DNA from: Promethearchaeota archaeon
GTDB taxonomy: Archaea > Asgardarchaeota > Lokiarchaeia > Sigyniarchaeales > SOKP01
DNA length: 64,000 nt
NCBI GenBank assembly: GCA_016839745.1
Contig: JAEOTS010000116.1
Span: 1-64,000, forward strand
Direction: 5' to 3'
Each line of letters starts with the position of its first letter. Within the stretch, counting starts at the first letter, position 1. The position numbers and the translations under genes are program-made. This document shows, piece by piece, positions 17,189-36,226 of the stretch. The notes beneath the pieces are model-generated. The model saw only the letters and a program-made list of their open reading frames with translations. It had not been told where the DNA came from and searched no databases.

Positions 17189-18547
17189 TTATTCAATATT
17201 CTTTAATCTATCCATAAAAGGTTCTACGCGAGTTTTAACTTGTTCTATGTTTTCTCCTATTTTTTTGAAATTTATGACTATTGCAGGAATATCTAATTCA
17301 GATTTTAGTTTTTCTTTTAATTTGTCGTAAGTTTTTGATATTGAAGGACAACCAAATACTTGATTGAAGATTAAACCATCTATATCCATATTTTCTGCTA
17401 CTGCTAAGTACGAACTCGTCATGTTTTCATCGTTACATCCAATGCCTTTTGCTGACGCATTCAAGAGAAATCGAGCGTATTCTTCAATTGGATCGGAGTG
17501 ATTTGATATGGATATTTCTTCCAAAAAACCTAATACGTCCCAATCTGCATAAATTACTCTTCCTCCCAAATTATAGATAATTTCATGTATTTCTGGTTCC
17601 CATCCTTGATACATTGGGGCAAATAACAACCTTGGCATTTTATAGACGTCCATACCTATGCCTTTTCTTATACGCTCTCTCATTTCTTTAACTAATTGGC
17701 TTAGATTTTCTAAATATCGTTGAGCATTGGAATTATAATCCTGAAATGTTATTGTTAAAAGAGCTAAAATTTCAGAAAATGTTGCAGGATTACAAGGGTA
17801 GAAATCTGAACCGCCAATCTCGTAAAGAATAGTCTTATAAAATCGTTTTACCTGGTTTCCGATTCGGAATTGCTTCTGTAAGCTATTATCTGATACAAAA
17901 TTGCCCGTAATGTTTTCTAATTCGCTAATTCCAGTCTTTATATTATCGACCATCTGTTTAAGAGCTTCATTTTCATTATACGAAGTTTTAGGAGGAACAT
18001 CAATTAATATTTGTCTCGGAACAATTGTCTTCAATGATTCATAGAACTTATTCCATCTACCACAGCGCATTGCGAAATTAAGATTAGCATCCACATTTTT
18101 TCCTTTTGATTTATGCATTCCGTAAAGAGCGTTAATTCCATAGCATAATTCTGAAGGAACACCATTATTAACGCCTAATTCGTACATTTCATTATATTTA
18201 CTGTTTATCGATGTAATAACATCTTCAAGAATTTTATCAACTATTTTTAGCACATCAAACTGGCGAGCGAAATCCAGAAATTTTGATGTCAAATCCCAGC
18301 CTAGAACCGAAGTAGCTGATGTTATTGGTGTTAGATATCTGCTAAAATCAAAAGTTTCCATCCTGATTGGAAAAACCGGAACTGCTCCAACCGCAAAAAC
18401 TAAATCGGGGAATCCTAAAGCAACAGAAATTAATTTCTTCTTTTCTCGAAATTTTTTCTTCCGTAAGTAATCTCTCCCCGTTAAAAAATTTGAAGCCATT
18501 TTTAGAACAGATGTGAAACTTAGGACATCATCAGCGTATATACTCGT
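17189..18547 (-). CDS. 2-hydroxyacyl-CoA dehydratase subunit (HgdA/B family), paralog 2
   Basis: Close paralog of 20446-21801; three cluster Cys (ELCYG, MRCG, FGCP). Similarity runs 16 codons upstream of ATG 18499 to an ACG at 18547. Confidence 0.8.
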   Translation of the reverse strand, partial: TSIYADDVLSFTSVLKMASNFLTGRDYLRKKKFREKKKLISVALGFPDLVFAVGAVPVFPIRMETFDFSRYLTPITSATSVLGWDLTSKFLDFARQFDVLKIVDKILEDVITSINSKYNEMYELGVNNGVPSELCYGINALYGMHKSKGKNVDANLNFAMRCGRWNKFYESLKTIVPRQILIDVPPKTSYNENEALKQMVDNIKTGISELENITGNFVSDNSLQKQFRIGNQVKRFYKTILYEIGGSDFYPCNPATFSEILALLTITFQDYNSNAQRYLENLSQLVKEMRERIRKGIGMDVYKMPRLLFAPMYQGWEPEIHEIIYNLGGRVIYADWDVLGFLEEISISNHSDPIEEYARFLLNASAKGIGCNDENMTSSYLAVAENMDIDGLIFNQVFGCPSISKTYDKLKEKLKSELDIPAIVINFKKIGENIEQVKTRVEPFMDRLKNIE

Positions 18548-19113
18548 TTTGGGATCATCTCGAGTTACTGTTTAAATTTATGTTTTGTAGGACTACAATT
18601 TAAAATTAGTTATATAAAAGTAATAAAATTTATGAGCCAAATTATAAGGTTTTCAAACACTATTTGAAACATTTATTACCAATTTTTAAAGTATAATTGA
18701 TATATTATAGTTTTAAAACAGATTCAAAATTTCTCTCGAAGGAAGATTGAAAAACATATCCTTCAAAGCATCCAAATTAGAAAGTTTTTTAATAGAAATC
18801 TTATAAATTATTTAATTTTTAATTCTCTGTGTTTATAAAATTATATATTTACACATAAAATTAAATAATATCAATCCTTTATATAAATTATATATATTGA
18901 GTATTTGGTTTTCCCGTTCCTGTAAAATTTTTTAGGAATTTGGCTTAAAAGATAATATTAAGATAGGCACTGACTGTATCAAATTAATTTTTGCCTACTT
19001 TCAGTAGAAAAAAGCTAAATTGTTAATTATAAAATATCTAATTTCTTAAGGTATAATTAGCAATCAAATACTCTCAAGTGAAATTTTAGCAATAAAATGA
19101 AAAAAACAAGAGA

Positions 19114-26427: not shown

Positions 26428-26582
26428 ACATAAAATTCCTATAAATCAGATTCTTTATTATTCTTGAACCAACTTATTGATTTTTAGGCAAATTTCGATT
26501 TTATAGGAAAAAGTAGAAAAATTTATACACCTACTTTTACTATTCTATTTTAAAATAATATTTATAAAAACAAGTAAAAGTT

Positions 26583-26954
26583 GTGAATTCTATGAATGGA
26601 AAGAAGAAATTTTATATTTTACTCGGATTTTTCCAATTAGTATTGGTAGCTATTGTATTCCTAAGCGTAGATGGCGTTATAACGATGGTAGCGGCACAAA
26701 CAGAGAGTTTTGATTATTATAATTCTCCAACAGCGGCAATTTTGGCAGTTTCCGCAGCAATATCTCTCGCTGCATCAGTATTAGGAAGTGCTATGGCTAT
26801 AAGAACAGTAGGTACAGCAGCTATATCGTCCTTATCCGAGAGAGAAGAAAGTTTTTTTAAGGCATTTTTAATCGTAGCATTATGCGAAGCTTTAGCCGTG
26901 TATGGTTTAATTGTAGCAATCCTATTCTGGACAAAAATACCTAATCCGATATAA
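26583..26954 (+). CDS. atpK: A/V-type ATP synthase proteolipid subunit K (c) with an N-terminal extra hydrophobic helix
   Basis: Hairpin ending FLIVALCEALAVYGLIVAIL with the ion-binding Glu; ATG at 26592 is an alternative start. Confidence 0.9.
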   Translation: MNSMNGKKKFYILLGFFQLVLVAIVFLSVDGVITMVAAQTESFDYYNSPTAAILAVSAAISLAASVLGSAMAIRTVGTAAISSLSEREESFFKAFLIVALCEALAVYGLIVAILFWTKIPNPI

Positions 26955-26995
26955 TTTCGTTTATTATTTAAATTCTATAGTTAGGTGATTTTTGC

Positions 26996-28051
26996 ACGAG
27001 TATAATTATTCCATCTTATGCGTATACATTTATCAAAATCGATTATTTAAAGAATTTAATTATTGATGATGATACTTTAAGAAGATTGAAAACTGTATAC
27101 GATATTGAAACTTTTATAGACATCATAAAACCTTTTTATCCGAATATAGAGATAAAGGAATATACTATAGAAGAAATTGAAGGAGTTTTAATCAATAATT
27201 ATATTCAACTAATTGGAAAAGTTCAACAGTTTTCTCCTCTTAACATGAGAAAGTTCTTAAAAAACTATCTGATGAAGTTCGAAATTCAAAATCTCAAACA
27301 AGTTATCATCAGTTTAATTATAGGGATGGGACAAGAGGAAAGGAGAAAAAATATTAACTTCTTAGTTGAGGTCTATTTAGATAACACAGAATTCATTGAA
27401 GATTTGCTTAAACTCACCACTTTAGATGAGATTCAAATATTTCTTAAAAAATCTTTATATAATATTCCTATTAGAGAAGGGATCCTTTACTTTAAGAAAA
27501 ATAAAGAAATTTTTGTCCTGGAGGCATTTTTAGATCAACTATATTTTAATCATCTCAGAGAGCAATTAAAGAATTTAAATAAAAAAGAAAAAATAATGAT
27601 CTCATTATTTGTGAAGTATAAAACTGAGATTTATAACTTAAATGTGATTTATAGAGGAATTAAAAATAAAATCGATAGAAAATTACTATCACAATTTTTA
27701 GTGAATGATTATTTATTTTTAAATGAAGATAAACTCAACCATTTGTTAAATCTTAATACTCCTGACGATTTTCTCTCAAATGTGGAGTTATATCTTAAGA
27801 ATATAACAAAAACAGAGCAGATTTTTATCACATTAAAAATTGACCCTAAGCATATAATTAGGTCAATAGAACAATTTTATATTACTTATTATTTCAAGAA
27901 ATTTAAAATTAAAATCGACGATATTAACTTTTTCACAATATCAAAAATTTTGGAAGTCTTAATAAAAAAGGAAAAAGAAATCAAGTTTGATATCCTACCA
28001 AGAGTTATTAAAATCATTCATAAGAAGTTTAGAGGATTAAAAAAGTTATAG
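26996..28051 (+). CDS. atpC: A/V-type ATP synthase subunit C
   Basis: Operon position; FEIQNLK, LEAFLDQLYF, EIYNLNVIYRGI. The open frame upstream of TTG 27086 encodes the expected PSYAY N-terminus and begins at ACG 26996. Confidence 0.85.
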   Translation, partial: TSIIIPSYAYTFIKIDYLKNLIIDDDTLRRLKTVYDIETFIDIIKPFYPNIEIKEYTIEEIEGVLINNYIQLIGKVQQFSPLNMRKFLKNYLMKFEIQNLKQVIISLIIGMGQEERRKNINFLVEVYLDNTEFIEDLLKLTTLDEIQIFLKKSLYNIPIREGILYFKKNKEIFVLEAFLDQLYFNHLREQLKNLNKKEKIMISLFVKYKTEIYNLNVIYRGIKNKIDRKLLSQFLVNDYLFLNEDKLNHLLNLNTPDDFLSNVELYLKNITKTEQIFITLKIDPKHIIRSIEQFYITYYFKKFKIKIDDINFFTISKILEVLIKKEKEIKFDILPRVIKIIHKKFRGLKKL

Positions 28052-28104
28052 ATATGAAATTAATCATTTAATAAATAAAAAATAGTAAATAAGGTGCTAG
28101 AATA

Positions 28105-28416
28105 ATGGAAATTTTTAAATGGGTTGAAGAAATCGAAAAAATTTATGATGATTTAATTGAGAAAGCTAAAAAAGAAAGTTTAGAAGATATCCGAAAAGCA
28201 AGGACTTCTCAAGAAAAAGAAATGGAAAATACAATTTATAAAAATCAAGAAATTATTAACGAGGCGCTAGCTAAAGTTTCCAAAGAGGTTAGTGAGAATT
28301 CTGAAAATTTTGAAGAATTATTAAAGAATTTATGTAATAAGATTGAAAAATATTACCAAGAAAATAAAGAAGGATTATCAAGTATACTATTTGAAAAATT
28401 AGGTTTTGATTTTTAA
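28105..28416 (+). CDS. atpH: A/V-type ATP synthase peripheral-stalk subunit H/G
   Basis: 103-aa charged coiled-coil (IEKAKKE..I..AR) inside the operon. Confidence 0.7.
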   Translation: MEIFKWVEEIEKIYDDLIEKAKKESLEDIRKARTSQEKEMENTIYKNQEIINEALAKVSKEVSENSENFEELLKNLCNKIEKYYQENKEGLSSILFEKLGFDF

Positions 28417-28733
28417 TGCCGGATGCAAAAATACATGTCATTGGTTACGACGAGATAGTCTCCTTGCTTGGTCTTCTAGGTATCGAAGGGACTATAGCCA
28501 ATAATAAAGAAGAATTTATCAAAAAATTCGAGAATTTGATAAAAAGACCATCAATTGTAATGATAATTATAAATATGGAGTTGCCAGACGATACTTTTGA
28601 ATATATTATGGATTTTAAGATTAATAATAGGATTCCTTTTATATATCTTTTACCCGATATCTTTCAACCAGATATTAGAAATCACGATAAATTATTTGAT
28701 AGGATTCATGAATTAATAGATGAAATTATTTAA
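28416..28733 (+). CDS. atpF: A/V-type ATP synthase subunit F
   Basis: KIHVIG..V..L.LLGIEG, P.I..LPD; TAATG coupling to the upstream gene. Confidence 0.85.
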   Translation: MPDAKIHVIGYDEIVSLLGLLGIEGTIANNKEEFIKKFENLIKRPSIVMIIINMELPDDTFEYIMDFKINNRIPFIYLLPDIFQPDIRNHDKLFDRIHELIDEII

Positions 28734-28749
28734 TTGAAGGTGATTAGCC

Positions 28750-29472
28750 ATTAGTGAAGGACAAGAAATTAAGGGAAGGTTTGGGAAATTAGGGTTGTAT
28801 TTAATAAGCCAAGCAGAAAATGATATAAAGACCATTAATCAACAAACTCTCTTTCAAATAGCAGAAGCTAAGAAGAAAAACAAGGAGAGAACTAGAGAAA
28901 GTTCTTTAAAGATGAAAGCGCACTTTAATGAAACCTTTAACAAATTATTAAATAGCTCTCTATCTTCAACTCTTTTAAAAATTAAAGAAGAAGTATTGAA
29001 ATCTAAAAATAAGTTAATGTTAGAGCTTATTTCTGACTTAACAGATTTAATAAACAATAAAATAAAAAACAACTATCCAAATTACACTAAGTTTATACTA
29101 ACAATTCTTAAAAATATTAAATATATTGTTGATAAGCCACCAGAGATTATTATTACATTAAATTCAAGAGATTACGACTTTTTTAGCAATAATAATGAAC
29201 AAATAGAAGAAATTTTTAAGAATAAAGTCAAGCTAAAGAAATCGGAGAAAAAATTCACAGGTGGTTTTATTTGCGTTGTATTGTCAGGAAATATTTCATA
29301 TAATTATACGATTGAAAATCAGTTAAAAAAAAACACTTCAATTATAGAAATTGAGTTTTCAAAGATTTTTTCAGATTCAGAATCAGATATTAAAAAGCTT
29401 GAAAACGATTATGTTCAATTTATACAAAATCAAAAGTTAGCTGTAGATAATTACTTAAAGGATTATGAATGA
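28750..29472 (+). CDS. atpE: A/V-type ATP synthase subunit E
   Basis: N-terminal coiled coil and C-terminal GGFI..GNISYNYTIE; frame open upstream of TTG 28795 to ATT 28750. Confidence 0.85.
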   Translation: MSEGQEIKGRFGKLGLYLISQAENDIKTINQQTLFQIAEAKKKNKERTRESSLKMKAHFNETFNKLLNSSLSSTLLKIKEEVLKSKNKLMLELISDLTDLINNKIKNNYPNYTKFILTILKNIKYIVDKPPEIIITLNSRDYDFFSNNNEQIEEIFKNKVKLKKSEKKFTGGFICVVLSGNISYNYTIENQLKKNTSIIEIEFSKIFSDSESDIKKLENDYVQFIQNQKLAVDNYLKDYE

Positions 29473-31306
29473 AACTAAAGAAGAGATTAAATCCGGATAC
29501 ATTTCATCCATAAATGGAACCTTAATAGAGATTAAGGGCTTAGAGGACCAAGTTCGACTTCATGATTTAGTAAGAGAATCTAAGCATAAAATTTTAGGTG
29601 AAGTAATCCAAATTTATTCTGATCATGTGATTGCAAAAGTGTTTGAAAACACTTTTAATCTAAAACTAAATGAAGAAGTACTAAGTTTACAAGAACCCCT
29701 ATCAATGGAATTAGGTCCGGGATTATTAGGTAAAATTTTTGATGGAATTCAGAGACCACTCGAAGCAACTTTTTTAAAGTCTGGAGGGGGTGGTTTTTTA
29801 GAGAGAGGTGCAGATATTCCTTCCTTATCAAGGAAGAAAAATTGGTCTTTTAAGCCATTACGGAAGATTGATGATTTTGTAAGCACGGGTTATGTTATAG
29901 GAGTTGTTCAAGAAACTCAACTTATAGAACACAAAATAATAGTACCAGTAGGAGTTTTTGGAAAAATAACTTATATAGCAGAGGAAGGGGAATATACTGT
30001 AATTGATGAAATTTATCGCCTAAAAAGAGGATCAAAAGAAAAATCCTTTAATATGATTCAGAAATGGCCAATTACTAAACATAGACCTTATAAGGAACGA
30101 GATTATCCTCAAGAACCGCTAGTAACAGGAATGAGAGTGATTGATTTATTATTTCCAATAGTAAAAGGAGGCACGGTAGCCGTTCCTGGTGGTTTTGGAA
30201 CTGGTAAAACAGTTATTCAACAATCTCTAGCAAAATGGTGTAATGCCGACGTCGTCGTTTATATAGGCTGTGGGGAGCGAGGAAACGAGATAGCAGATGT
30301 TTTAAAACAATTCTCTGAAATCACTGATCCTAAGACTGGTCATTCGTTACTAGAACGAATTGTTATCATTGCGAACACTTCAAATATGCCTGTTTCCGCT
30401 CGAGAAGCGAGTATTTTTTCTGGAGTTACTATTGGAGAGTATTACAGAGATATGGGTTATGATGTTGCCGTTTTAGCTGATAGCACTTCAAGGTGGGCAG
30501 AATCTCTGAGAGAAATCTCGGGGTTATTAGAAGAAATGCCCGCTGAAGAAGGATATCCGGCCTATTTACCTTCAAAAATTTCTAGTTTTTATGAAAGAGC
30601 CGGAATTGTTAATCTTTATGGGGATGAAGATTTAGGAAAAGAGAATTATGGTTCTTTAACTATTATCGGTTCAGTATCACCTCCTTCAGGAGATTTCAGT
30701 GAACCCGTAACTTCAACAACTAAGCGTTTTGTTCAAGCATTTTGGGCATTAGACGCAAATTTAGCTTACTCCAAGCACTACCCTGCAATAAATTGGCTAA
30801 ACTCGTACTCAAAATATCCTGAATCCATTTCTGATTGGTGGTATGAAAGAGATATTTATTGGCCTGAGATAGATATAGATTGGTATGAGTGTCGAAAACA
30901 AATAAATTACATTCTATCTCAAGAGAATGAACTAAAAAATATTGTCCAATTAGTTGGGGAAGAAAATTTACCTGAAAATCAACAATTTATCCTCTTTATT
31001 GCTAGAATAACGAGAAATAGCTTTTTAATTCAAAATGCATTTGATTCGATTGACTGCTTTACAGGGATTAAAAAATTAATTGGGTTCGTGAAACTTATTT
31101 TATTATTGTTTAACGAAGGTAAGCAATTAATAAATCAAGGATTTTTGATCGAAGAAATCAAGGAACTTAAAGTTGTAAATGATATCCTTAGAATTGGTCG
31201 ATCAGTTCCTAACGATGATTTTAAAAGATTAGAAAAATTAAGAACTAAACTGATTAATGAAATAGAAACTTTAAAGTTATTACATGGTGTTTTTAAGAAG
31301 AAATGA
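29465..31306 (+). CDS. atpA: A/V-type ATP synthase catalytic subunit A
   Basis: [14 protein letters not shown]-loop [39 protein letters not shown]. Confidence 0.96.
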
Positions 31307-32694
31307 GCGTCATTTATAAAAAGATAAAGAAAATTATTGGACCTTTAGTGTTTTTAGATAATAAACATGATGTACAATATGGTGAGATCGTCAAAATCAG
31401 AACGGACGATGGTAAAGAACGAACGGGCCAAGTTGTGAAAATGGACGAGAGTACAATAACTATCGAAGTATTTGAGGATACAGCTGGACTGTCTTCCGAA
31501 AATTCTACAATTACCTTCACTGAAGATTCATTTAAAATAAAAATATCTAGTGATATGTTTGGAAGGGTGTTTAACTCCTTAGGAAAACCGATTGATATCA
31601 ATACAAAACAAGTATTAGAATCTGATATTTTAACTGAAATAGAAAGAGATATAAATGGTTTACCTATTAATCCATTTGCTCGAGAATATCCTTCAGAAGT
31701 TATTCAAACAGGAATCTCTGTGATAGATGGTCTTTTTACGTTAATTAGAGGGCAAAAACTCCCAATTTTTAGCGATCAAGGAATGCCCCATAATTTATTA
31801 GCAGCACAAATTGTTACTCAAGCCAAAGTTTTAACCGAAGAACCATTCTTAATAATTTTTTGCGGGATAGGAATCATCCAAGATGAAGCAATTTTTTTCA
31901 TGAAGCGTTTTCAAGAGAGCGGAAACATTCAGAATATTATTTCTTTTATCAACTTTGCTGATGATCCAATAATGGAAAGATTAATTGTTCCTCGTGTAGC
32001 TTTAACTACCGCGGAATATTTTGCATTTGAAAAAGACATGCATGTTCTCGTAATTTTAATTGACATGACCAATTACGCAGAAGCATTGAGAGAGTTAAGT
32101 TCAGCTAAAGAAGAGATTCCTAGCAGGAAAGGATATCCCGGATATTTATATACTGATTTTGCATCTCTCTACGAAAGAACTGGAAAAATTAAGGGCAAAA
32201 AGGGAACTATAACACAAATTCCGATTCTAACAATGCCAGGAGGAGATATAGCCCACCCTATTCCGGACACTACTGGATATATTACCGAAGGTCAATTAGT
32301 TCTAAATCGCAATTTGGACAAAAAAGGAATCTATCCTCCGCTTGAGGTTTTAGCTTCTATTTCCCGGTTAATGAAAGATGCTATTGGTAAAGATACTACT
32401 AGGGAAGACCATGCGGATGTTAGTTCTCAATTATTATCTTCTTACTCCGCTGCTCTTGAAGTTAGAGACCTTATATCAATTGTTGGAGAAGATGGATTAA
32501 GTTTTAATCAGAAAGCATTATTGAAATTTGGAGAAGTTTTCGAGCAAACTTTTTTAAATCAAAGTCATTCTGAGGAAAGAGATATTAAATCAACGCTAGA
32601 TATAGCTTGGAAGGCTTTATCTCATATACCAAGGCATCAATTATTTAGGATTCATCAAGAATTAATCGATAAATATTATGTTGGAGAGGTGTAA
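31303..32694 (+). CDS. atpB: A/V-type ATP synthase subunit B
   Basis: [53 protein letters not shown]. Confidence 0.96.
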
Positions 32695-32700
32695 CCAAAA

Positions 32701-33339
32701 GCGTCTTTTCGTGAATTCCGGCCCACCAAAACTAATCTACTCTCGCTGCAGAAGAGATTAAATTTTGCGGTCAAGGGTGAAAACTTTTTGAAATTTAAAT
32801 TAGAGCAATTAATGGTTGAGATCAAAGGAAATTGGGAAAATTATTTAAAGAGTCGTGAAATCTTTATCGATTTATACAAAGAAACTATGATTAAACTTCA
32901 TCAAACTTATAAAGAAATGGGAAAAAGAGACTTTAGCTTAGTCAGTAAGTTGAGTAAACTTCAATACAAACCTACGATAGATGTAAAGTATTTTAAAAAG
33001 ATTGGATCGTTAATTCCTGTAATTGAATATAAGTTGATAAAGGAGGAATTACTTCCTGCTTATTCATTTGAAAATTCAAGTCATTACCTTGATGACTTAA
33101 TAATAGTTTTAGAAATTTTTTTTGAACAACTCATTATCTTTGCAAAATTAGAAGATATAATGTTAAAGATCTCTCTGTCTTACAAGAAAATAAACCGAAG
33201 AATTAGAGGATTAAAAAATGTGATTATTCCTGAATTACAACTCGAAATAAAAAAAATAAAAGAGATATTAGAAGAAAACGAAAGAGAAAACTATGTTCGC
33301 TTAAAGAATACAAAAGACTTGATAACTAAAGAAATTTAA
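32701..33339 (+). CDS. atpD: A/V-type ATP synthase subunit D
   Basis: The conserved N-terminus RPTKTNLLSLQKRLNFAVKGENFLKFK lies upstream of TTG 32788; C-terminal RRIRGLKNVIIP..LEENERENYVRLK. Confidence 0.88.
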   Translation, partial: ASFREFRPTKTNLLSLQKRLNFAVKGENFLKFKLEQLMVEIKGNWENYLKSREIFIDLYKETMIKLHQTYKEMGKRDFSLVSKLSKLQYKPTIDVKYFKKIGSLIPVIEYKLIKEELLPAYSFENSSHYLDDLIIVLEIFFEQLIIFAKLEDIMLKISLSYKKINRRIRGLKNVIIPELQLEIKKIKEILEENERENYVRLKNTKDLITKEI

Positions 33340-33356: not shown

Positions 33357-35681
33357 ATGGCAGAAAAAAGTGTTATGGTATTATTTAGGGTTAATATTAA
33401 TCAAAATTACAGGGATCTCCTCCTACAACATCTATCTCAACTATATTTGGTTCACATTAAAACTAGACCAGAAGAAAGTGCGAAATTTGAAAGGGATGAT
33501 GTTTTATTTGAGAGAATTAATAACTTGAGTCAGAGTTTAGAATCCTTATTTAAAAGTCTTGATATTACAGAATCTGATTTCCAAAAATTAAGTTTTGAAC
33601 CTGATGAGAGGAAAAAATTTGAAGTGAAAGATATTGACGATTTAATAAACCAACTTGTAAATGAAATTAATTATTATTCCAATCGGATTAATGAGTTAAA
33701 AAATAATCGTACTTCTATTGAAATTGAGCTAGAAAAAATCAACACAATCCATGGAAGTTATCTATTTTTAGAGAAATACAAGTTAACTCGAGATAAATTA
33801 ATGAAATTCAAACTTTTGGAATTTAAAGCCTTTACAACATTCGCAAAGAATCTAGAAAATATTGAAAATATCTTTGAATTCTCGCATTTTCCAAATTTTC
33901 TTCATTATGATTATCTAAGTAATGAAAGAATCGCATTTTTTATAATCTATCCTAAGGAAAACGAGGATGAATTTAGAGAAAGGATACGGCTAATTCACGC
34001 CGAAGAGGTACCGATTCTAAAAAAGTATTTACTCTCTGATGGGATAAACTTTCCTCGAATAGCAAAAGAAATCAAGTTTGTAATTACTTCTTTAAACAAA
34101 AATCAAAAGGAATTAGATAGATTAAGGGACGATCACCTCCTTCTGTTTGCTGCGGCTTATGAGATAGTAAAAAATCTGGAAGAATATAACTGGGTTTCTC
34201 ATCAATTCGAAGAATTATCCTTAAATCGATTAAGTTTGAGTTTTTACCTGCCTAAAGGCAAAGAGAAAGAAATCCAACAAGGGTTAATTGAGAAATTTGA
34301 AGATAAAATTACAATCGATTCGATCGATATTACAAAAAGTAAATTTGTAAGTCTGAAAGAGGATAGGGATCACGTACATTCTGGGAAGTCTAAAGATGCA
34401 AAAGAAGGAACAATTTCAAAAGAAGAAACAGCAGTGAAAGAAAAAGAAGAAGAAAAAAAAGATTTAAGACATTCTGCTCCTACTATCATGAGGAATAATT
34501 TCTTTGTGAGACCTTTTGAAACAGTTACTAAAATGTATGGGGTTCCTGCGTATTCAGAAATTGATCCGACCCCAATTATTGCTATAACATTTCCAATTTT
34601 GTTCGGGATAATGTTTGGAGATATTGGACATGGTCTTGTCTTAATTATTGCAGGTTTAGTTGGTGCGATAATTTATAGAAACAAAAAAGGAAAGGATTTT
34701 TTAAATTTTTGCTGGATCATTCTATATTGTGGTGTTGGAGCGGTGATAATTGGATTTCTTTACGGTGAATTTTTTGGAATGCACGAAATTAAGTTATTTA
34801 ATACAGTTTTCATGCATTTAGAACCTATGACGATTCCTATATTGAATATTACATTGTACAATCCCTTAGATAATATAATGTCAGTTTTTAAGTTTGCAGT
34901 CTTGGTTGGAGTGTTCCACCTTAATTTGGGCTGGTTCGTTCAATTTTTAAATTATTGGAAACAAAAAAGAAAATTCTTAGGTTTTACTGATTCCTTAATG
35001 AAAATATTGTTATTGACTGGAGGAACTATTCTAATTTTTACTTTTGGATTTGACGTTTATTCTTGGTTAGAACCTCAAGTAATATTCAACTTTGGAGCCT
35101 TTACATTTAGTACCTTTCCCATTTTATTGCCGCTAGTTCCAGGTTTACTCTTGATTGTGTTAAAACCTTTAGGTAAAGTATTACATATATCTTATTTGAG
35201 CGAAGAATCTGTTGGCGGACTTATTGGAGAAGGTACAATGGAGACTTTTGAAACGCTACTATCAATTATGAGTAACGTAGCGTCTTATATAAGATTACTA
35301 GCGTTAGCCCTAGCACACATATCATTAATGGTTGCAATCACAGCAATGGGTAATTTAGTTCAAGGTGAGGGTATAGTTAACGATATTATCAATCTCGTAG
35401 GTTCTATATTTGGGAATATGATTGTTATTCTGCTAGAAGGATTATTAGTCTTTATAAATGCTATCAGACTTCATTTCTATGAATTTTTCTTTAAATTTTA
35501 TCAAGGTAGTGGTGTAAACTTCATTCCATTCTATTCAGACGATATATATTCAGTAATAAATTTCAAGATAAGTAGCATTAAAGATGTAATATCCGAAGAA
35601 ATAGATAGAGAAATCGAGTCAAAAATAACTCAAAAAGACATAATGGAAGCAGAAAAACTTGTTTCTAAAAAATATATGTAA
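33357..35681 (+). CDS. atpI: A/V-type ATP synthase subunit I (a)
   Basis: PFE..MYGVP.YSEIDPT, FGIMFGDIGHG, SYIRLLAL (essential Arg), RLHFYEFF.KFY.G.G. Confidence 0.95.
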   Translation: MAEKSVMVLFRVNINQNYRDLLLQHLSQLYLVHIKTRPEESAKFERDDVLFERINNLSQSLESLFKSLDITESDFQKLSFEPDERKKFEVKDIDDLINQLVNEINYYSNRINELKNNRTSIEIELEKINTIHGSYLFLEKYKLTRDKLMKFKLLEFKAFTTFAKNLENIENIFEFSHFPNFLHYDYLSNERIAFFIIYPKENEDEFRERIRLIHAEEVPILKKYLLSDGINFPRIAKEIKFVITSLNKNQKELDRLRDDHLLLFAAAYEIVKNLEEYNWVSHQFEELSLNRLSLSFYLPKGKEKEIQQGLIEKFEDKITIDSIDITKSKFVSLKEDRDHVHSGKSKDAKEGTISKEETAVKEKEEEKKDLRHSAPTIMRNNFFVRPFETVTKMYGVPAYSEIDPTPIIAITFPILFGIMFGDIGHGLVLIIAGLVGAIIYRNKKGKDFLNFCWIILYCGVGAVIIGFLYGEFFGMHEIKLFNTVFMHLEPMTIPILNITLYNPLDNIMSVFKFAVLVGVFHLNLGWFVQFLNYWKQKRKFLGFTDSLMKILLLTGGTILIFTFGFDVYSWLEPQVIFNFGAFTFSTFPILLPLVPGLLLIVLKPLGKVLHISYLSEESVGGLIGEGTMETFETLLSIMSNVASYIRLLALALAHISLMVAITAMGNLVQGEGIVNDIINLVGSIFGNMIVILLEGLLVFINAIRLHFYEFFFKFYQGSGVNFIPFYSDDIYSVINFKISSIKDVISEEIDREIESKITQKDIMEAEKLVSKKYM

Positions 35682-35716: not shown

Positions 35717-36226
35717 ATGAAAAATGAGAATAACCAGAGAGGAAGATTTGTAAAAACATTAATTCTAATCATTTATTTAGTTTTTGTTGTTTTCCTCTTC
35801 TATATTTTATTTATATTTGGGATTAATCCAGTTATTATAGTATTATTACTCATATGTATATCTTCAATCATTCTAGGAATTTTCTTTAGACAAAAAAAAA
35901 AATCAATTTATTCAGAATTATATCCTGATAAAAAACGAAATAAAATTCAGCGTCCTCCTAGAAAGTTAGAATTGAACATTGAAACAGATTCTGAGAAATT
36001 AGTACAAAAAAAATTGAGAAATGTGGACCTGAATTTTAAATATCGCAAATCTCTTATCAATAAATGCGAAAACTGCGGAATGATGATAACTGGTTACAAG
36101 AAAAGGTGTCCTACATGTGGTAAGGATTTTGAATTAAAAGAAGTAATCAAGAAATGCAAAACATGTGGAATGATGATTCCCAAATCTACAAAAAAGTGCC
36201 CAATCTGCGGAACGCGAACATTATAA
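35717..36226 (+). CDS. membrane-anchored tandem zinc-ribbon protein
   Basis: Two N-terminal TM helices; repeats KCENCGMM..CPTCG and KCKTCGMM..CPICG. Confidence 0.8.
   Translation: MKNENNQRGRFVKTLILIIYLVFVVFLFYILFIFGINPVIIVLLLICISSIILGIFFRQKKKSIYSELYPDKKRNKIQRPPRKLELNIETDSEKLVQKKLRNVDLNFKYRKSLINKCENCGMMITGYKKRCPTCGKDFELKEVIKKCKTCGMMIPKSTKKCPICGTRTL

Follow-up and report, generated by a model that had tools for sequence, protein, structure and literature searches.

Conserved ACG, ATT and GCG codons as probable start codons of three ATP synthase genes in an Asgard archaeon

Where does translation of the C, E and D subunits of the A/V-type ATP synthase begin in an uncultivated Promethearchaeota archaeon (GTDB lineage Archaea; Asgardarchaeota; Lokiarchaeia; Sigyniarchaeales; SOKP01)? 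The question is raised by positions 1 to 64,000 of contig JAEOTS010000116.1 (contig C86) of assembly GCA_016839745.1, a stretch of 64,000 nucleotides that we call the window; the assembly consists of 3.53 Mb in 192 contigs, has 32% GC and is 89% complete. The plus strand of the window carries an ATP synthase operon at 26.6-35.7 kb with the gene order K-C-H-F-E-A-B-D-I. In three of its genes, atpC, atpE and atpD, the interval from the upstream in-frame stop to the conserved coding sequence contains no ATG, GTG or TTG. Each of the three has a Shine-Dalgarno (SD) motif followed, after 5-9 nt, by ACG, ATT and GCG, respectively. An earlier note on this DNA had proposed that these codons are starts enforced by the SD motifs. 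On re-reading the sequence, we found the motifs, stops and codons exactly as it gave them, as well as the lengths of 351, 240 and 212 amino acids for the extended proteins.

We consider it probable that atpC, atpE and atpD use SD-directed near-cognate initiation with an ordinary initiator tRNA, and that this is a trait of the whole lineage. Canonical starts are absent from the three sites, the SD geometry fits, the codons are constrained, periodic conservation starts at them, and near-cognate codons are enriched behind SD motifs genome-wide and genus-wide. The proposal of SD-enforced non-AUG initiation is thus strongly supported by comparative evidence together with genome-wide statistics.

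The 5' ends of atpC, atpE and atpD

The alignment of orthologous 5' ends that the earlier note had called for drew on 24 genomes of the same genus, on other families of the order, on 32 named metagenome-assembled genome records and on 11 metagenome contigs. In all three genes, the N-terminal extensions are conserved. Downstream of the presumed start (codon 0), variability at the three codon positions is about 0.2/0.15/0.45, and upstream of it variability is flat, so that three-base periodic conservation sets in exactly at the ACG, ATT and GCG codons. Upstream of codon 0, insertions and deletions break the frame among orthologues. The codons at the three starts are constrained as nucleotides and interchange with canonical start codons in orthologues. 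The SD spacings of 6, 5 and 9 nt (atpC, atpE and atpD) lie inside the distribution for canonical genes of this genome; atpI, which the note had used as its canonical reference, indeed reads AAGTGA-7 nt-ATG, with the ATG at 33357.

The same bases are found at the start sites in more than 30 independent assemblies, which makes assembly error unlikely. All three genes have their full length and evolve under purifying selection, contrary to what would be expected of pseudogenes.

For atpC, an in-frame TAG (26978-26980) closes the frame upstream. The SD motif AGGTGAT (26983-26989) ends 6 nt before the ACG (26996-26998), which is the modal SD-to-start spacing of the genome, and AGT follows. With this start, indicated by orthologue comparison, the corrected coding sequence spans 26996-28051 (351 aa), as supported by Pfam family PF01992 (vATP-synt_AC39) and by periodic variability; the TTG at 27086 chosen by the open reading frame (ORF) caller would cut off 30 residues. 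The PF01992 match (E = 4.8e-24, 85.7 bits versus a cut-off of 29) covers positions 7-318 of the 339-position profile and begins at residue 22 of the stop-to-stop ORF, before the TTG. Of 18 same-genus sequences, 17 have ACG as codon 0, which precedes S-I-I-I-P-S-Y, and one has ATG. In more distant genomes it is ATG or TTG, and a genome from another family of the order (G028, L059) reads GAGGTGA TGA GAG ATT, with the ATT at the Met position. The third base of the ACG is invariant, whereas the ordinary Thr codon 10 uses ACA, ACC, ACG and ACT. Variability by codon position is 0.18/0.17/0.46 after the ACG versus 0.45/0.57/0.54 before it, and the distance from SD to ACG shifts among orthologues by frame-breaking indels.

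For atpE, the SD motif AAGGTGAT (28737-28744) contains the in-frame stop TGA (28741-28743) and lies 5 nt before the ATT (28750-28752), which is again followed by AGT and was assigned by comparison of orthologues. The corrected coding sequence (28750-29472, 240 aa) matches PF01991 (E = 6.5e-10, 39.2 bits versus a cut-off of 24.2) and shows periodicity from the ATT onwards. Although this gene had been put forward as the case with the weakest homology support, it turned out to be among the strongest: all 19 unique orthologues from the genus have ATT as codon 0. The codon that follows always encodes Ser, alternating between AGY and TCN codons, and the Met position is occupied by ATG in the two most divergent members of the genus.

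The GCG of atpD is two mismatches away from AUG and one from GUG, whereas ACG and AUU are one mismatch away from AUG. The SD motif GGAGAGGTG (32683-32691) lies in the 3' end of atpB and adjoins the atpB stop TAA (32692-32694). The stop is followed by CCAAAA, by GCG (32701-32703), which orthologue comparison indicates as the initiation codon in this clade, and by TCT. The corrected coding sequence (32701-33339, 212 aa) is under purifying selection and matches PF01813 (E = 4.1e-30) over positions 1-195 of the 196-position profile, from ORF residue 14. Profile position 1 falls 18 residues before the TTG at 32788, in agreement with the earlier observation that no ATG, GTG or TTG precedes the conserved part of the protein.

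Among 36 unique atpD sequences, codon 0 is ATT (16 sequences), GCG (5), TTA (5), ATG (4), ATA (3) or ATC (3). The GCG is invariant in every sequence of the clade that we found, namely five unique genome sequences, this one included, and the 11 metagenome contigs, which had been recovered with a clade-specific pattern downstream of the atpD start. GAGGTG plus 9 nt to codon 0 is constant in all atpD orthologues of the clade. The 6-nt spacer before the GCG is variable (CCAAAA, CTAAAG, TAGAAA, ATTAAA, ATTACA), the codon after it varies between TCT, TCC and TCA, and the ordinary Ala codon 22 varies between GCG, GCC, GCT and GCA. Judged from these comparisons, the GCG at the atpD start position is constrained at the nucleotide level.

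One might ask whether atpD is instead expressed by recoding, through readthrough of the atpB stop or through a -1 frameshift at the GTG at 32711, which lies out of frame. The atpB stop shares its frame with atpD, and a run of AAAA is present as well as the GTG. Three metagenome contigs, however, read TAA TAG AAA GCG; the double stop leaves neither an upstream ATT nor stop readthrough as an explanation, and a fusion of B and D by readthrough was thereby ruled out. Comparison of the 28 codons after the GCG with clade relatives showed 12-16 synonymous and 2-5 non-synonymous codon differences. This excess of synonymous changes indicates that translation is in the D frame from codon 1 onwards, ahead of the supposed shift site, and so excludes the frameshift. 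Furthermore, the atpK and atpF stops are out of frame with atpC and atpE. Recoding is therefore very improbable, and the same applies to pseudogenes or assembly errors as an account of the three genes. An ATT beside the atpB stop was also tried as the atpD start of the GCG clade and rejected, being missing in this genome and in five related contigs.

The first in-frame canonical codons are TTG in all three genes, at 27086 (atpC), 28795 (atpE) and 32788 (atpD). They are the choice of the ORF callers, and the conserved upstream stretches could in principle be untranslated leaders that are maintained for other reasons. In this genome, the atpD TTG is even preceded, at 7 nt, by a GGTGA of its own (32776-32790, plus strand, in the K-G-E-N-F-L motif). 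This pairing of SD and TTG is found in this genome alone: most clade relatives read GGG GAA AAC TTC TTA, the codon is TTA in 8 of the 11 clade contigs, and GGTGA precedes none of the three that have TTG. Codon 30 of atpC is TTG in some species only, and codon 15 of atpE is TTG, TTA, CTG, CTA, GTT, CTT or ATT. At these two positions and at codon 29 of atpD, most species have Leu, Ile or other codons (TTA, CTA, ATT etc.), so the called TTGs are not the conserved starts. The upstream stretches, moreover, evolve as coding sequence, with variability concentrated in third positions and, in atpD, the synonymous excess described above, and the Pfam domains of C and D begin within them. We regard it as highly unlikely that the TTGs are the true starts.

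Near-cognate starts across the genome and the operon setting

The earlier note had also recommended a scan of the genome for SD motifs followed by near-cognate codons. We anchored such a scan on 5-mers of GGAGGTGAT and considered ORFs of at least 100 codons in which an in-frame stop lay within 12 codons upstream and neither the stretch ahead of the position nor the next four codons contained a canonical start. The 16S rRNA 3' end was not found in the assembly, and the anti-SD sequence was taken from general knowledge of archaea instead. In the SD register (d = 6-7), there were 139 canonical starts, 55 ATT, ATA, ATC, ACG or CTG codons, and 45 other codons. Off-register positions had 79 near-cognate versus 441 other codons (odds ratio 6.8, p = 4e-16); measured against A/T-only control codons, the odds ratio was 10.5. 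The excess of near-cognate codons corresponds to about 54 genes, or about 23% of the SD-led starts in this genome.

The enrichment is not confined to a single genome. Three other genomes of the genus (400 kb) have about 25% near-cognate codons among SD-led starts (p = 0.003), and four Asgard genomes of other families (1.6 Mb pooled) have about 9% (p = 0.011). The pooled figure was used for the latter, as the single 400-kb samples from outside the genus are individually underpowered. The shares inside and outside the genus differ (p = 0.004). By this estimate, the trait is not special to the ATP synthase, and roughly a quarter of the SD-led genes in the genus would start at AUU, AUA, AUC or ACG.

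Near-cognate starts resemble canonical ones in their surroundings. There was no clear difference in SD length, with a near-cognate share of 0.28-0.40 over SD lengths of 5-8. Coupling to an upstream gene was not tighter either, the upstream ORF ending within 90 nt in 62% of near-cognate and 69% of canonical cases.

Six other conserved genes have a Pfam domain that begins before any canonical start, and in a DeoC-type aldolase with ATT (contig C94:22506-23309) the domain does so by a few residues. The six are a Ras-like GTPase with ATT (contig C20:36598-37158), a RagA-like GTPase with ATT (contig C20:11601-12536, minus strand), a response regulator with ATC (contig C116:20564-20929), HisB with ACG (contig C88:141-749, minus strand), a metallophosphoesterase with ATT or ATA (contig C93:60574-61095) and GatE, which probably starts with CTG (contig C155:4165-5634), its first canonical codon being at residue 204. 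PheT with ATA (contig C9:263-1948) likewise has its Pfam domain or family N-terminus ahead of the first canonical start.

This breadth bears on the suggestion that weak starts damp the low-copy subunits of the ATP synthase, which is not supported as a specific explanation: GTPases, HisB, GatE and the initiation factor aIF1 share such codons. A role in subunit stoichiometry is likewise at odds with the atpD codon, which switches between ATG, ATT, ATA, ATC and GCG among sister species, and with subunits F and I, which keep ATG. A tuning role for weak starts is possible.

The scan also bears on C-to-U editing of the mRNA, which would convert ACG to AUG and GCG to GUG, as in plant organelles. A single change of this kind would make the atpC and atpD codons canonical, and the SD association of ACG (0.052) is close to that of GTG (0.068) and TTG (0.062). 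Editing cannot account, however, for the ATT of atpE, for the ATT, ATA and ATC of atpD in sister species, or for about 45 other ATT, ATA and ATC starts. Across the genome, neither TCG (a UUG after editing) nor GCG shows enrichment behind SD motifs (2/248 and 1/122, respectively), and ACG, a classical near-cognate start codon, can serve without editing. We know of no C-to-U editing of mRNA in archaea. Editing of ACG and GCG, as raised in the note, is possible; ATT, ATA and ATC starts are out of its reach. With these latter codons beyond repair and TCG and GCG unenriched, editing is unnecessary as an explanation, and we consider it improbable.

Elsewhere in the window, a 460-codon ORF on the minus strand (17189-18571) has a weak SD motif, GATGATC, followed by ACG AGT at 18547. 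This ACG is a weak candidate for a start, and an in-frame ATG 24 codons downstream is equally plausible.

The remaining genes of the operon have ATG starts or, in the case of atpK, probably have one. The first, atpK (proteolipid c subunit, PF00137), lies at 26593-26954 on the plus strand. The ORF caller places its start at GTG 26583; the start is probably ATG 26593, and the mRNA would then be leaderless or have a short leader. Within 26560-26595, a TATA-like TTTATAAAA near 26563 lies about 25 nt before this ATG, and there is no SD motif. The arrangement fits a leaderless or short-leader AUG for the first cistron and SD-led starts for the internal genes. A scan for bacterial promoters and terminators was also run and was uninformative for an archaeon. 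A small H/G-like stalk subunit (28105-28416, plus strand) matched no Pfam family above the cut-off and is followed by atpF (28416-28733, plus strand, PF01990). The genes atpA (29465-31306) and atpB (31303-32694), which occupy 29465-32694 of the plus strand, were named by length and operon position and left out of the Pfam scan. The last gene, atpI (33357-35681, plus strand, PF01496), is followed directly on its 3' side by a membrane protein whose C-terminus carries a double zinc ribbon (35717-36226; PF12773, PF13240).

Initiator tRNA, aIF1 and the proposed mechanism

Which tRNA would read these codons? A pattern search located an initiator tRNA gene at about 7810-7935 of contig C94 (plus strand). 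It has A1:U72, GGG/CCC in the anticodon stem and CAU as its anticodon, and is interrupted after position 37 by a 47-nt intron. An altered initiator anticodon was thus rejected for the copy found. ARAGORN performed poorly on this genome, finding 11-16 tRNAs and mis-calling the initiator as tRNA-Ser(aga). Altogether, 21 tRNA genes were detected in the 89%-complete assembly, many with introns, and the tRNA set is incomplete. This incompleteness leaves some room for another tRNA, either an elongator tRNA for Ile, Thr or Ala or a second, specialised initiator, in which case the proteins would begin with Ile, Thr or Ala. Against this, the single initiator tRNA found is fully canonical, and orthologous positions switch freely between near-cognate codons and ATG or TTG. 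The codons used (AUU, AUA, AUC, ACG and rarely CUG) are single-mismatch neighbours of AUG, a set that is predicted by wobble of a CAU anticodon and not by several separate tRNAs. Initiation by a non-initiator tRNA therefore appears about as improbable to us as editing.

Loss of a fidelity factor was considered as well. Genes for aIF1 (SUI1), which acts to reject codons other than AUG, and for the N6-threonylcarbamoyladenosine (t6A) enzymes Sua5 and Kae1 are all present in the genome, and loss of aIF1 or of the t6A enzymes was rejected. The aIF1 gene (contig C94:32674-33024, minus strand, outside the window) has itself an apparent ATT start. Its 5' end reads TGA AAA AAG AGT ATT AAA GAC GAC GAT ATT TGT, with no ATG, GTG or TTG before the zinc knuckle, which would be deleted if the first canonical codon were used. 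Residues 8-106 of the ORF align with residues 3-101 of Methanocaldococcus jannaschii aIF1 (4MO0). The ATT is shared by 18 genomes of the genus and two genomes of a sister genus. Three genomes of another family (L200, L202, L198; G030, G034, G037) have ATA at the x-P-K-D position, and other families have TTG, GTG or ATG there.

Discrimination against AUU in vitro has been described for Saccharolobus solfataricus aIF1 (summarised in PMC4705826 and PMC6237735). Accordingly, an aIF1 gene that starts with AUU would limit its own synthesis, like infC and eIF1. The gene here carries the feature that such autoregulation would require, namely a weak start of the kind that aIF1 itself disfavours. The ATT start of aIF1 thus suggests an autoregulation of start-codon stringency similar to that of infC and eIF1.

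For SD-directed near-cognate initiation, we propose the following course of events. A long duplex between SD and anti-SD would set the codon 5-9 nt downstream into the ribosomal P site, where the ordinary initiator Met-tRNA, with its CAU anticodon, would be accepted on a near-cognate codon. Output from ACG, AUU and GCG would presumably be lower than from AUG. An AUU-started aIF1 would exert negative feedback, which could lead to a permissive steady-state stringency. At atpD, ribosomes that end translation of atpB 6 nt upstream may help to start at the GCG by termination-reinitiation. Pairing of GCG with a CAU anticodon would need a G·U pair and a C·A mismatch, and the long SD together with the nearby termination of atpB may offset this poor pairing. 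A similar layout, with a stop and a restart codon close by, is known from the termination upstream ribosomal binding site (TURBS) of caliciviruses, where a terminated ribosome is held by pairing between mRNA and rRNA and restarts nearby, with tolerance for non-AUG restart codons. The arrangement of atpB stop, 6 nt and GCG is alike, although TURBS is viral and eukaryotic and the archaeal counterpart is our proposal.

Several points weigh against near-cognate initiation at the three genes, or against parts of it. Related genomes are non-independent observations, and the samples of other lineages, at 400 kb, are small. With two positions off AUG and the lone occurrence behind SD motifs mentioned above (1/122), the GCG is a single-gene case, and we know of no natural precedent for a GCG start codon. 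ATA or ATT codons 2-4 codons after the ACG of atpC are possible co-used starts. Finally, the internal TTG at 32788 could be a minor secondary start of atpD that gives rise to some truncated D. More tentative still is the wider view in which, in a family of Loki-type Asgard archaea, near-cognate starts in about a quarter of SD-led genes, the clade-fixed GCG at atpD and an AUU-aIF1 feedback loop together form a permissive regime, that is, an eIF1-like stringency circuit; it is a possibility to which we give rather less than even chances.

Relation to known systems and meaning for Asgard archaea

Non-AUG initiation as such is already known, from infC, from the codons of translation table 11, from eukaryotic near-cognate starts and from chloroplasts. 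In Escherichia coli, infC, which encodes IF3, has an AUU start and is under translational autocontrol (Butler et al., 1987, as summarised in PMC4705826). The likeness to the present case is twofold: AUU behind an SD motif serves as a genuine start, and the gene of a fidelity factor, here aIF1, also starts with AUU. The E. coli gene is a rare exception, few genes being of this kind, as opposed to about 23% of SD-led genes here; furthermore, the factor in the archaeon is aIF1, a homologue of eIF1, rather than IF3, and the feedback is proposed from sequence.

In eukaryotes, near-cognate initiation is gated by eIF1, which is autoregulated through the poor context of its own start (PMC4705826, PMC7075259). 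The codons (ACG, AUU, AUA, AUC and CUG), the SUI1 family and the weak start of the factor gene are features in common with the archaeal case. In the archaeon, however, it is the SD duplex that would place the start codon rather than scanning and Kozak context, and the codons concerned are the main starts of essential proteins rather than those of upstream open reading frames or N-terminal extensions. Plant organelles create AUG starts from ACG by C-to-U editing, and chloroplasts have non-AUG starts (PMC9845219). They share with this genome an ACG in the DNA at the Met position of a conserved gene of an energy-converting complex, but most cases here are ATT, ATA or ATC, which editing could not repair.

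NCBI translation table 11 allows ATT, ATC, ATA and CTG as starts, and ACG and GCG are absent from it. Even for the codons allowed, the frequency found here is far above the sporadic use that the table reflects. The reviews of archaeal initiation consulted give AUG, GUG and UUG as the sole start codons (PMC7531240), and full-text searches of the archaeal initiation literature that could be searched found no description of routine ACG, AUU, AUA or AUC main starts or of a conserved GCG start. What appears to be new, therefore, is the scale, the routine use of ACG, the clade-fixed GCG and the link to a weak-start aIF1 in Asgard archaea.

There are practical consequences for annotation. Standard gene callers, to our knowledge, consider only ATG, GTG and TTG, and in these Asgard genomes N-termini would therefore be truncated or missed in a number of genes that we estimate at 50-100 per genome. 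What is cut off includes the P-loop of some small GTPases, 200 residues of GatE and the zinc knuckle of aIF1; truncated N-termini can distort analyses of eukaryotic signature proteins.

The combination of a weak-start aIF1 with widespread near-cognate initiation resembles the eIF1-controlled stringency of eukaryotes. Because relatives of the eukaryotic ancestor have the trait, it becomes testable how eIF1-type control arose. If the wider view of a permissive regime is true, an eIF1-like stringency circuit would be at work in the closest archaeal relatives of eukaryotes.

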